A DNA stretch of 63,423 nucleotides, filler included, from Reclinomonas americana ATCC 50394 (GCA_048213135.1; 4 parts of one record of this genome joined end to end with filler, not necessarily neighbours in it), one strand, 5' to 3'. Shown: positions 12,332 through 17,270, counted from the first letter of the whole stretch. Program-made: numbers and translations. Notes: generated by a model not told the origin, from the letters alone.

Positions 12332-13242
12332 ATGACCGACTATTGCGAACGAGTTCTCGCTAGGCTCCATGAGTGCTACCATGTGAGCATGAACTCCATC
12401 CCGCGCAAAACCTTCCGCAACTACTCGTGGGTGTGGGCCAAGTTCCAGCGCTTTGTGAGCGCAAACATGGTCGTTCGCGGTGCGACAACTCCCCCACTCT
12501 CTCTCTCTCTCCATCTCTCTTCTCCCTTCATCGCGCTGCTCTCTTGCTCACTCCCTCTCACACACGTGTTGGCGCAGACAAGTACGCTGATGACGAAGCC
12601 GGTCAGGTGGCCTTCAACAAGCAGTGTGCAGTGTGCTTGGAGGAGAAGAATTTCGACAAGGCAGCCGCTGCGTTCCTCCTCTCGCGCAGAAAGGCAGACA
12701 AGGTCAAGTACTGCACGCTGGTGACCGACCTTGAGGCCCTCGACTGGTACGCCAAGTATGAGCTCGGTCACACCAAGGTGCGCGCGCGATCAAAGTGCCT
12801 CGAGTTGAAGTTGCATGATGTTCCGACCAGTCGACCAATGTTTCGTGTCTGGCAGACGTACAATCTCCGCAAGGGCAAATGCAGAACGGCGATGCGCATT
12901 GTGAAGCGCGAGGAGCGCGACGAGTACTGGCCGTGGAATGGACCCGGCTTTGACCTCGATTCTGGATATGTGTACATCACAACCGATGGCCAGGAGCGGC
13001 CTGTCGCGGCCGGTGACAACTCAGTGCGAATGTGGTCGACGCCGTGCGGTCACGCTCGACTCGATGTCGACTGCGCGCGCTCGGCCGTGCGTGTCGTGCA
13101 GGAGATGATGCGTGAGGCTGTGGAGGACGAAGTTGAAGTGGAAGAACGCTGCTTGCCGGAGATCGTTCTGCGCTGTTTCATCGTCGAGGAGGCGCAAGTC
13201 GTGGTACATCGATGTCTCGCGGAGCCACGGCTGTTTTGGTGA
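12332..13242 (+). CDS. Unknown protein: novel N-terminal domain, remnant WD repeat and the conserved QEMM...RCLPEIVLRCFIVE tail
   Basis: Spliced ORF whose last ~75 aa align with the tails of the two downstream WD40 genes. Confidence 0.75.
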
Positions 13243-13555
13243 TCTTTTGCAAGTGATTTTCCTTTTGGTATCGATCTGCATGTTTGTTCGGAAGTGCGAG
13301 TGTCGTCGACACGTGAGGCTTGGGCGGTGCACGCACGAGCACGAGGGGTGGTGTTTCGAGTTCCTGTCCTCGGGATTATCCAAAGATATCTTTTCATCCA
13401 TAAGTAGAAGTTTATTAATATTCCGCATTTCTGCATGACGAACGCCATGACAACGAAGGTGTGCATGTGAGAGAGAGAGAGAGAGAGAGTATGTAGAAAG
13501 CGTGAGTGAGAGAGGAAGGGAGGGAGACTGAGAGACAAGAGAGACAGTGAGAGAC

Positions 13556-13634
<79 letters not shown>

Positions 13635-14824
13635 TAGTACGTACGTACGTACGTACGTACGTACGTACGTACGTACGTACGTACGTACGTACGTACGTAC
13701 GTACGTACGTACGTACGTACGTACGTNNNNNNNNNNNNNNNNNNNNNNNNNNNNNNNNNNNNNNNNNNNNNNNNNNNNNNNNNNNNNNNNNNNNNNNNNN
13801 NNNNNNNNNNNNNNNNNNNNNNNNNNNNNNNNNNNNNNNNNNNNNNNNNNNNNNNNNNNNNNNNNNNNNNNNNNNNNNNNNNNNNNNNNNNNNNNNNNNN
13901 NNNNNNNNNNNNNNNNNNNNNNNNNNNNNNNNNNNNNNNNNNNNNNNNNNNNNNNNNNNNNNNNNNNNNNNNNNNNNNNNNNNNNNNNNNNNNNNNNNNN
14001 NNNNNNNNNNNNNNNNNNNNNNNNNNNNNNNNNNNNNNNNNNNNNNNNNNNNNNNNNNNNNNNNNNNNNNNNNNNNNNNNNNNNNNNNNNNNNNNNNNNN
14101 NNNNNNNNNNNNNNNNNNNNNNNNNNNNNNNNNNNNNNNNNNNNNNNNNNNNNNNNNNNNNNNNNNNNNNNNNNNNNNNNNNNNNNNNNNNNNNNNNNNN
14201 NNNNNNNNNNNNNNNNNNNNNNNNNNNNNNNNNNNNNNNNNNNNNNNNNNNNNNNNNNNNNNNNNNNNNNNNNNNNNNNNNNNNNNNNNNNNNNNNNNNN
14301 NNNNNNNNNNNNNNNNNNNNNNNNNNNNNNNNNNNNNNNNNNNNNNNNNNNNNNNNNNNNNNNNNNNNNNNNNNNNNNNNNNNNNNNNNNNNNNNNNNNN
14401 NNNNNNNNNNNNNNNNNNNNNNNNNNNNNNNNNNNNNNNNNNNNNNNNNNNNNNNNNNNNNNNNNNNNNNNNNNNNNNNNNNNNNNNNNNNNNNNNNNNN
14501 NNNNNNNNNNNNNNNNNNNNNNNNNNNNNNNNNNNNNNNNNNNNNNNNNNNNNNNNNNNNNNNNNNNNNNNNNNNNNNNNNNNNNNNNNNNNNNNNNNNN
14601 NNNNNNNNNNNNNNNNNNNNNNNNNNNNNNNNNNNNNNNNNNNNNNNNNNNNNNNNNNNNNNNNNNNNNNNNNNNTTACCGTAAACGGTACCGTACCCGT
14701 TACGGTACCGGTAAACGGTACCGGTACGTTTACGGTACCCGGTACGTTACGTAACGTACGTTACGCGAGAGCAGAGAGAGAGAGAGAGGTCTGTGCACGT
14801 GAGTGTTTCCCACCGTGCATCAAC

Positions 14825-15889
14825 ATGTGGTCCACGCAGATCTTCGAGGGGCACACTGACAGAGTGTGGTCTGTCGCCCTCACCCCCGACGGCCAGTTCG
14901 TGGTCAGCGGGAGTGGCGATGGGACTGTGCGAGTGCGGTCACTGGCGAGCGGAGAAGAATTTCTTCTGCTGCAGGGTCACGCTGCTTCTGTGACTCGTGT
15001 CGCCGTCTCTCCCGACGGGCAACACATTGTCAGCAGTAGTGTTGACTCCACGGTTCGCGTGTGGTCACTGGCGAGTGGCGAGGAGGTGCGACGATTGGAG
15101 GGGCACATTGGGCGAGTGCAGTCGGTCGCCGTCACGCCCGATAGCCAGCACATTGTGAGTGGCGGGGAGGACAGCACCGTGCGGGTGTGGTTGCTGGCGA
15201 CGGGGGAGCAGGTGCGACAGTTGGTCGGGCACGCTAGGCAGGTTGGGTCTGTCGCTGTCACCCCCGACGGTCAGCACATCATCAGTGGCAGTATAGACAA
15301 GACAGTGCGCGTGTGGTCTGTGGCGAGTGGACGACAAGAGCGACTGCTGAAGGGACACACTGGGTGGGTGACTTTCGTTGCCGTCACTCCCGACGGCCAG
15401 TTCGTACTGAGCGGGAGCTGGGACACGACAGCGCGAGTGTGGTCGCTGGCATCTGGCGAAGAAGTACATCGGTGGGAGGGTCACATGGGGTCAGTGCGTT
15501 CCGTCGCCCTCGATGGCCAGTGTGTGGTGAGTGCGAGTGACGACGGGAGTGTTGATGTGTGGTCGCTGGCGAGTGGCAAAGGAGTGAAACTGCTGGAAGG
15601 CCGAGCCGGCGGCGTGATGTGTGCCATTGTCACGTCGGACGGTCAACACATCGTGAGCGGGAATGGCGACGGCTCAGTGCGGGTGTGGTTGACGCCGCGT
15701 GGTCTCGCGCGATGCGAACTGCACACTGCGTGGTCGGCCCTGCAGGCCGTGCAGGAGATGATGCAACTGGAGGAGGACGAGGCGGATTCACGCTGCCTGC
15801 CGGAGATTGTTCTGCGTTGCTTCATCGTCGAGGATGCAGAAGCCATGGTGCATCGGTACCATAGTGACGATTCCTGGCTCTTCTGGTGA
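14825..15889 (+). CDS. WD40-repeat protein (7 repeats) with conserved C-terminal tail
   Basis: Repeats GHxxxVxxVAVTPDGQxxVSGSxDxTVRVW of ~42 aa; apparently intronless. Confidence 0.9.
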   Translation: MWSTQIFEGHTDRVWSVALTPDGQFVVSGSGDGTVRVRSLASGEEFLLLQGHAASVTRVAVSPDGQHIVSSSVDSTVRVWSLASGEEVRRLEGHIGRVQSVAVTPDSQHIVSGGEDSTVRVWLLATGEQVRQLVGHARQVGSVAVTPDGQHIISGSIDKTVRVWSVASGRQERLLKGHTGWVTFVAVTPDGQFVLSGSWDTTARVWSLASGEEVHRWEGHMGSVRSVALDGQCVVSASDDGSVDVWSLASGKGVKLLEGRAGGVMCAIVTSDGQHIVSGNGDGSVRVWLTPRGLARCELHTAWSALQAVQEMMQLEEDEADSRCLPEIVLRCFIVEDAEAMVHRYHSDDSWLFW

Positions 15890-16137
15890 TGCATGGTGCT
15901 CTTTGGCGTGGCCTCTTTGTCTCTCTCGCTGCCTCGTACAACTGTAAATACGTCTCTGATAAAGGTTGCTTTTCTTCTTTCCATCTTTGCTCCTTTGTCG
16001 GCTTCGGGCCGAGAGGTGCGAGAACCGAGTCACGTGAACAGCGCAGGCAAAGCATCGCGAAGCCGAAGACTGAGTTCCATCGGATGAATCAAGATTCACT
16101 TCACTCGCTCCCCACACTCGCGCACGCAATGAATGGC

Positions 16138-17270
16138 ATGTCAACAAAGGTGATGGCTGTGTGTGTACTCGTGCGTGTGTGTATGTGTGCGCGCGTGTCG
16201 CTCACCCAACGCAGGTCTTGAAGGGACACAATGGCGCCGTGTGGTCCGTTGCTGTCACTCCCGATGGTCAGCTCGTGGTCAGCGCGAGTGGCGATGGGAC
16301 TGTGCGAGTGTGGTCACTGGCGAGTGGAGAAGAAGTGCGACGGTTGGAGGGACACATAGATGGAGTACATTCTGCCACCATCACTCTTGAGGGCGAACAC
16401 ATTGTGGGTGGGTGCGCGGACAGCGCCATCCGGGTGTGGTCTCTGGCAAGTGGGGAAGAGGTGCGACTGCTGACTGGCCACAAGTTTTGGGTGACGTCTG
16501 TCGCTGTGACTCCCGACGGCCAGCACGTTGTTAGTTGCAGTTGGGATAGCAGTGTGCGAGTGTGGTCACTGGCAACTGCGGAGGAAGTGCGAAGATTGGA
16601 AAGCGACACCACTCGCGTCGTACAGTCAGTCGCCGTCACTCCAGATAGTCAGTACGTTGTCAGTGGGAGTGGGGACAACACCGTGCGAGTGTGGTCGTTG
16701 GTGAGTGGAGAAGTAGAACGACAGCTGACGGGACACACTAATGAGGTGTTGTGTGTCACTGTCACTCCCGATGGCGAGCATGTTGTGAGTGGGAGCAAAG
16801 ACCGCACAGTCCGAGTGTGGTCGCTAGCGAGTGGAGACGAGGTGCGTCGGTTGGAGGGACACACTGCGGCGGTGAAGGCCGTCGCCGTCACTCCCGACGG
16901 TCATCGCATCGTCAGCGGCAGTCGCGACGAGACTGTGCGAGTGTGGTCACTGGCGACTGGCGAGCAAGTGTGCCGGCTGGAGGGACGGAGTGGGCGGGTG
17001 CAATGTGTGGCCGTCACTCCCGATGGTCAGCAAATAGTGAGTGGGAATGGCGACGGCACAGTGCAAGTGTGGTTGACGCCGGTCGGTCTTGCGCGATGCG
17101 AACTGCACAGTGCGCTGTCGGCCATGCAGACCGTGCAGGAGATGATGCAGCTCGAGGAGGACGAAGTGGAAGCACGCTGCCTGCCGGAGATCGTTCTGCG
17201 TTGCTTCATTGTCGAGGATGCGGAAGTCGTGGTGCATCGCTGTGTTGCGGACCCTGGGCTGGGCTGGTGA
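16138..17270 (+). CDS. WD40-repeat protein (7 repeats) with conserved C-terminal tail, tandem paralogue
   Basis: MSTK|VLKGH after intron 16150-16214; same repeat consensus and tail. Confidence 0.9.

Follow-up and report, generated by a model that had tools for sequence, protein, structure and literature searches.

Three genes with a shared C-terminal tail

The stretch of DNA analysed here, a window of 63,423 nucleotides (nt) in full length from Reclinomonas americana ATCC 50394 (GCA_048213135.1), carries three genes on the plus strand whose predicted proteins share a homologous tail of about 65 amino acids (aa) at their C-terminus. We refer to these genes as g1 (12332-13242), g2 (14825-15889) and g3 (16129-17270); their tails, stop codons included, lie at 13036-13242, 15689-15889 and 17073-17270, respectively. 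Embedded in each tail is a 14-aa core, RCLPEIVLRCFIVE, that is identical in all three copies (13147-13188 in g1, 15791-15832 in g2 and 17175-17216 in g3). Of the 67 aa in the g3 tail stretch, 35 are unchanged in all three copies, including the entire core, VQEMM, TP.G.AR and the final tryptophan, and all three tails end in W-TGA. An initial annotation of this DNA had described such a shared ending, with an invariant core between diverging flanks, and the pattern is indeed present in all three plus-strand open reading frames (ORFs). Each tail, used as a tblastn query, located these three copies in the window and no others (E 1e-15 to 1e-45); the match ranking after them had an E value of 0.15. 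The core is strongly hydrophobic, with a mean Kyte-Doolittle value of +1.09.

The annotated C-terminal module of about 65 aa describes the tail well but not the limit of the homology. Between g1 and g3, protein homology starts at 12970 and shows 52% identity over 90 aa (tblastn, E 6e-23), so that the shared piece measures about 90 aa and reaches about 22 aa upstream of the tail, into the last half of a WD unit. At the DNA level, g2 and g3 are collinear with 72% identity over a stretch that begins at the first WD unit and extends 43-48 nt beyond their stop codons, and the DNA that g1 shares with them is confined to 13012/13022-13243. We considered the tail as a degenerate eighth WD unit and rejected this: aligning the tail profile with the unit profile by hhalign gave a probability of 0.23%.

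The core is under strong purifying selection, while the remainder of the tail evolves under loose constraint. Over the 14 core codons, the three gene pairs differ by 4, 4 and 2 synonymous and by 0 nonsynonymous changes (about 10 synonymous and 31 nonsynonymous sites). When g1 is compared with g2 and g3, synonymous differences in the core affect 4 of about 10 sites and are as frequent as in the flanks. Since only synonymous differences are found, the identity of the core reflects selection at the protein level and not recent copying. The ratio of nonsynonymous to synonymous substitution rates (dN/dS) was 0.54-0.63 in the tail flanks, 0.44-0.47 over whole tails and 0.35 in the WD regions of g2 and g3. 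Between g2 and g3, the synonymous rate (dS) was 0.36 in the tails compared to 0.82 in the WD regions.

Distribution of the tail

A profile of the three tails, searched against 1,835,955,588 representative proteins, gave three matches at E<=0.001, of which two were real relatives. P0001 is a 116-aa fragment consisting of a WD40 unit and the tail. P0003, a protein of 381 aa encoded on a single contig of 5765 nt, is made up of a divergent propeller and the tail. It is collinear with g3 throughout, at 24% identity across 371 alignment columns (E 2e-20), and has retained RCLPEMILRCFLVED in the core. The third match, P0002 (955 aa), was judged spurious, being a repetitive protein that matches profile positions 20-42 only. 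The selected core of the tail reads RCLPE[IM][VI]LRCF[IL]VE, and a weaker conserved stripe, A..SA...V.EMM, falls in the predicted first helix of the tail. In word-based searches, a profile of all five tails run against longer proteins recovered P0003 alone among 3554 candidates, and the g3 tail region found no relative among its 33 candidates; P0003 was the sole relative found in a search of 5.8e9 clusters. Apparent occurrences in prokaryotes were judged to be chance: 15 pattern matches were found in genome contigs, five passed tblastn, and three of these five were inspected by eye. Two of them (L001 and L002) run antisense to ordinary regulator genes and one (L003) lies out of frame where two genes meet; the 19-aa match of L003 recurs in L004 and L005.

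In all, tblastn finds three copies in the window and the tail profile, of the kind that the initial annotation had suggested, finds two protein relatives, both of the latter behind a beta-propeller. A propeller precedes four of the five known tails, with g1 as the exception, and, as P0003 is collinear with g3 and g1 retains half a WD unit, the exchangeable N-terminal domains that had been proposed find no support. The accompanying proposal of a lineage-specific family agrees with the presence of two relatives among 1.84e9 representatives. It had also been considered that the tail might be a known housekeeping domain, or might occur in these three copies only and evolve without constraint; instead, it matches no known family, has relatives beyond the three copies and holds a core under purifying selection. 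Judged from these comparisons, the tail is part of an old, very rarely sampled and lineage-restricted propeller family.

Predicted WD40 propellers of g2 and g3

As annotated, two of the genes carry seven WD40 repeats. Pfam detects seven WD40 stretches each in g2 (14825-15688, E 4.3e-68) and g3 (16215-17072, E 1.6e-73), with unit lengths of 38, 42, 42, 42, 42, 40 and 42 aa in g2. The AlphaFold2 model of g3 is a propeller with a mean predicted local distance difference test (pLDDT) score of 88.7, and Foldseek superposed about 285 columns of it on solved seven-bladed propellers at template modelling (TM) scores of 0.95-0.96 relative to the target. The closest structures, at 36-38% identity, were a Thermomonospora WD40 domain, an entry described as a 'highly repetitive propeller' and designer propellers. 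From their sequences, g2 and g3 are tandem duplicates, each a stand-alone propeller of seven WD40 units followed by the tail.

The WD units are unusually alike, with a mean column identity of 71% over 12 full units (14939-15688 and 16314-17072). Seven unit columns are hypervariable, with a ratio of nonsynonymous to synonymous differences per site (pN/pS) of 0.95 compared to 0.34 elsewhere, values that come from 12 units and from p-distances near saturation. The hypervariable pairs 17/20 and 36/38 flank the invariant V19 and D37, 18 codons apart. This resembles the HNWD repeats of Podospora, where codons 7, 9, 25 and 27, around codons 8 and 26, are described as positively selected and as an interaction surface (PMC1805685), so that hypervariable pairs surround an invariant V and D in both. 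In having highly repetitive units, g2 and g3 also resemble the propellers of the fungal NLR proteins more widely (HET-E/HET-D and HNWD) and their bacterial relatives. The pN/pS of their hypervariable columns, 0.95, is not above 1, where a value above 1 would indicate positive selection. Both genes differ from those proteins in standing alone, starting at the first WD unit and lacking a NACHT or other N-terminal domain. No NACHT or NB-ARC domain was found at E<=1e-5 in 239 of the 249 stop-to-stop ORF pieces of at least 110 aa in the window, the remaining 10 pieces overlapping g2 and g3; a slight doubt remains owing to the assembly gap on the 5' side of g2. The tail is not reported for fungal HNWD-type proteins, whose C-termini were not compared. 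The hypervariable unit positions fit a possible role of g2 and g3 in ligand recognition.

An apparently chimeric gene, g1

The third gene was annotated as carrying an unrelated domain, which stands for most of its length, yet g1 also keeps half a WD unit. When the 14 units of g2 and g3 were combined into a unit profile, its sole match in g1 was at 12970-13035, corresponding to positions 21-42 of the 42-position unit. Since the homology with g3 starts inside a WD unit, g1 would be a partial 3' duplicate fused in frame, without a clean swap at a domain boundary. It looks like a chimeric gene in which the last half WD unit and the tail have been joined to an unrelated coding region.

The N-terminal part of about 131 aa (12578-12969) scores +0.77 bits/codon in its reading frame and negative in the other two forward frames, and it has no detectable relatives. 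Pfam offered nothing better than E 0.12 for g1. For its N-terminal part, a homologue search among proteins of 122-391 aa yielded none from 50 candidates, the best match among PDB sequences had an E value of 0.49, and comparison with the g3 propeller by BLASTP reached E 9.9. Scores of at most 0.85 to TPR-like clusters in the ESM Atlas were rated as leads only, and the AlphaFold2 model of g1 is poor (mean pLDDT 43.7). Cryptic WD units in this region were rejected, as the unit hidden Markov model (HMM), run with filters off, found the half unit only.

Gene models and genomic context

To begin at an ATG, g1 and g3 would each require a short GT-AG intron. In the proposed model of g1, exon 1 (12332-12479) comprises the ATG at 12332 and 49 codons plus 1 nt, scores +0.62 bits/codon in frame compared to -0.6 to -0.9 in the other frames (measured over 12332-12472), and ends at a predicted donor, G/GTGCGA. 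The putative intron (12480-12577; 98 nt, GT..AG, pyrimidine-rich) matches three introns of a tRNA-synthetase gene in the window in size and style, and exon 2 is predicted at 12578-13242. For g3, a first exon of 21 nt (16129-16149, encoding MNGMSTK) would be followed by a TG-rich GT..AG intron of 65 nt (16150-16214); if unspliced, the ATG of this exon is out of frame with the WD40 ORF. This intron, between MNGMSTK and VLKGH, is itself TG-microsatellite-like. The stretch of g2 that is homologous to the g3 exon junction (WSTQ-IFEGH; 14825-14850) runs on without an intron, which would imply intron gain or loss between recent duplicates. The likely start of g2 is the ATG at 14825, although its 5' side adjoins an assembly gap and the start is not certain.

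This gap of 949 N (13727-14675) separates g1 from g2. Long (GA)n and (GTAC)n microsatellites occupy 13440-13726 and 14676-14790 on either side of it, and the gap probably sits within simple-repeat DNA. Just 5' of the g1 ATG lies a direct repeat of about 90 nt with 90% identity (11964-12051 and 12216-12302), each copy of which holds a donor-like ACG/GTGAGT; the repeat may have arisen by duplication of a 5' exon/intron junction or of a piece of the promoter. The region upstream of g1, at 9.6-12.3 kb, contains many low-complexity repeats and no Pfam match, and an ORF at 10484-10792 would encode a long run of (PSP)n.

The window derives from the nuclear genome of a eukaryote whose genes contain introns. 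Pfam matches over separate ORF pieces include a class I tRNA synthetase, PARG, a protein kinase, Erg28, GPAT, HSP70 and others, and in the synthetase gene we read three pyrimidine-rich GT..AG introns of 60-100 nt. Of 16 runs of N, three belong to linkers of the form N44-TTAATTAATTAA-N44 (18087-18186, 42946-43045 and 57232-57331), identical blocks with stops in all frames. The window therefore consists of at least four contigs glued together, and neighbourhood across the linkers is not real; a Band_7/SPFH exon at 19511-19750, for example, is separated from g3 by a linker and is no true neighbour. Because g1, g2 and g3 lie wholly in the first piece (1-18086), their adjacency is real, save for the one 949-N scaffold gap between g1 and g2.

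Possible roles of the tail

We tentatively propose, at somewhat less than even confidence, that the tail core is a docking surface for one common partner. In favour of this are the three copies in the window, the purifying selection on the core, its retention in P0003 at 24% identity, the duplication pattern of the genes and the hypervariable unit positions. The tail is intact in g1, which lacks a propeller and scores as coding, arguing that its role is not tied to an intact propeller. The three genes would then represent a small paralogous family of beta-propeller proteins with a family-specific C-terminal extension, in which variable ligands, bound through the hypervariable unit positions, would be delivered by the propellers to a shared machine, and g1 could bring something else or compete for the partner. 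Several observations weigh against this proposal. Nothing in the window points to a docking partner, and expression and splicing of g1 and g3 are predictions from the DNA. The family amounts to five sequences, of which P0001 is a fragment and P0003 comes from a single contig. Beyond the core, the tail is weakly constrained (dN/dS 0.54-0.63), and some gene conversion, or else misalignment of the repeat units, may account for the lower dS in the g2/g3 tails. How the tail folds is uncertain (pLDDT 57-76 in g3 and 50-65 in g1), and the position of four of the five tails directly behind a propeller is equally explained by an intramolecular role.

Such a role would be that of a cap, the tail helices packing on the propeller, for example at the closing blade, and stabilising it with the core buried. 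At low confidence, the tail is predicted to form two helices joined by an acidic linker: the g3 model places them at residues 289-313 and 323-345, with pLDDT in 10-residue blocks of 57-76, and the corresponding region of g1 is also modelled as helical (pLDDT 50-65). The g3 model has 27 strands where seven four-stranded blades would need 28, and its first tail helix begins directly after the last strand, at a block pLDDT of 75-87. A cap would also suit the strong hydrophobicity of the core and the collinearity of P0003 with g3. Coronin and the DCAF H-box offer a parallel, having a helical element beside the propeller that packs on it or docks a partner; the likeness lies in this arrangement, and no sequence relation was found, although no test was aimed at these proteins. 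However, g1 keeps the tail with an intact core in the absence of a propeller, and conservation of the core far exceeds that of the propeller on which it would pack, which in g3 and P0003 is part of an alignment of only 24% identity. We consider a cap unlikely.

The initial annotation had instead compared the tail with the boxes of cullin-RING adaptors. By this account the tail would be a divergent box, VHL/SOCS-like or F-box-like, tethering propeller receptors to Elongin BC-Cul2/5 or Skp1-Cul1, which we regard as quite improbable. The architecture is similar: in WSB1, a short box at the C-terminus is described behind a WD40 domain, and g2 and g3 resemble WSB1 and WSB2, SOCS-box receptors of Cul5 ligases, in placing a short helical box with an LP motif behind a propeller (PMC3355856, PMC4812663). 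C-terminal F-boxes are likewise described for poxviral ankyrin proteins (PMC4133408). Poxviral ankyrin/PRANC proteins and F-box/WD40 proteins resemble g2 and g3 in combining a repeat domain with a short LP-containing helical box. The hypervariable unit positions would also agree with recognition-type WD repeats. None of the five tails, however, matched the Pfam F-box, F-box-like, SOCS_box or PRANC models at E<=10, a negative that holds only to about 0.1 since the HMMER filters drop most matches above that level. Weak matches to SAM_KSR1 (0.005), HTH_NWD1 (0.024-0.034), Suc_Fer-like (0.047) and DNA_ligase_ZBD (0.065-0.074), each in one of the five tails and below its cut-off, were dismissed. 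Against PDB chains, the tail profile gave no match (a ribosomal protein came closest, at E 3.3), and the ESM Atlas gave no usable match to the tail.

The published consensus sequences are (S,T,P)Lxxx(C,S,A)xxxPhi for the BC box, LPPhiP for the Cul5 box and PhiPxxPhixxxPhi for the Cul2 box, the last lying 8-23 aa after the BC box (PMC3355856). The BC box was absent from all five tails, whether searched in its strict form or relaxed to [STPA][LMVI], as was the Cul5 box, which together with the missing SOCS_box match sets the tails apart from WSB1 and WSB2. The Cul2-box pattern fits all five tails on LPE[IM][VI]LRCF, and a conserved helix lies about 10-14 residues upstream, at the place of a BC box, much as in VHL-box proteins, which combine BC and Cul2 boxes. 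Yet, of 20000 shuffles made of each tail, 1384-2505 (7-13%) fit the same pattern as well; with the BC box absent, its spacing from that box has no reference point, and the five tails count as one observation.

An F-box starts with LPxE[ILV] and forms a three-helix domain of about 40-50 aa, and in cellular F-box/WD40 proteins it is N-terminal. The LPxE[ILV] start was found in none of the five tails, which read LPE where LPxE would be expected. From the LP to the C-terminus there are 29-30 residues in g1-g3, fewer than an F-box would need, and the model shows one helix there (pLDDT 57-73). DCAF/DWD proteins, the receptors of CUL4-DDB1, carry a WDxR motif at the end of their WD units; each of the 12 aligned units of g2 and g3 ends in VW plus S or L and lacks a WD dipeptide. 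The suggested cullin-RING link thus received no positive test, the loose Cul2 pattern being the only one that fits.

Alternatively, the tail might be functionless, the shared 3' end of recent duplicates retained by descent or gene conversion, with g1 a chimeric pseudogene. The tandem arrangement of the genes, the lower dS in the g2/g3 tails than in the WD regions, the useless-looking half WD unit of g1 and the lack of relatives for its N-terminal part would all suit this explanation. It is very unlikely, however, given that the core of g1 differs at synonymous sites as often as the flanks (4 of about 10) and at none of about 31 nonsynonymous sites, that P0003 keeps the core at 24% overall identity, and that the g1 ORF is intact and scores as coding. 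Equally doubtful is a self-association module forming homo- or hetero-oligomers among g1, g2 and g3, which two predicted amphipathic helices on three co-located paralogues might allow and for which no positive evidence was obtained.

A more far-reaching form of the docking proposal, to which we give little credence, is that the tail is a new docking box of ubiquitin ligases or of other signalling, VHL-box-like with a Cul2-type LP helix and without a canonical BC box, coupling stand-alone WD40 sensors with hypervariable contact positions to a shared effector machine. Were it true, these genes would form a minimal family of immune-like receptors in an under-sampled protist, in which the propeller-less g1 would carry other cargo or act as a competitor.

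The C-terminal extension is undescribed, and it sits on a real, lineage-restricted propeller family. For annotation, the value of these results lies in the tail profile and in the recognition of g1 as an apparently chimeric duplicate. At present, the tail amounts to a small extension specific to one family, in a eukaryote that has been sampled poorly, and bears on no open question yet. Should the core indeed dock a common partner, this would establish a new short adaptor module and offer a handle on the role of stand-alone, highly repetitive WD40 propellers outside fungi and bacteria.

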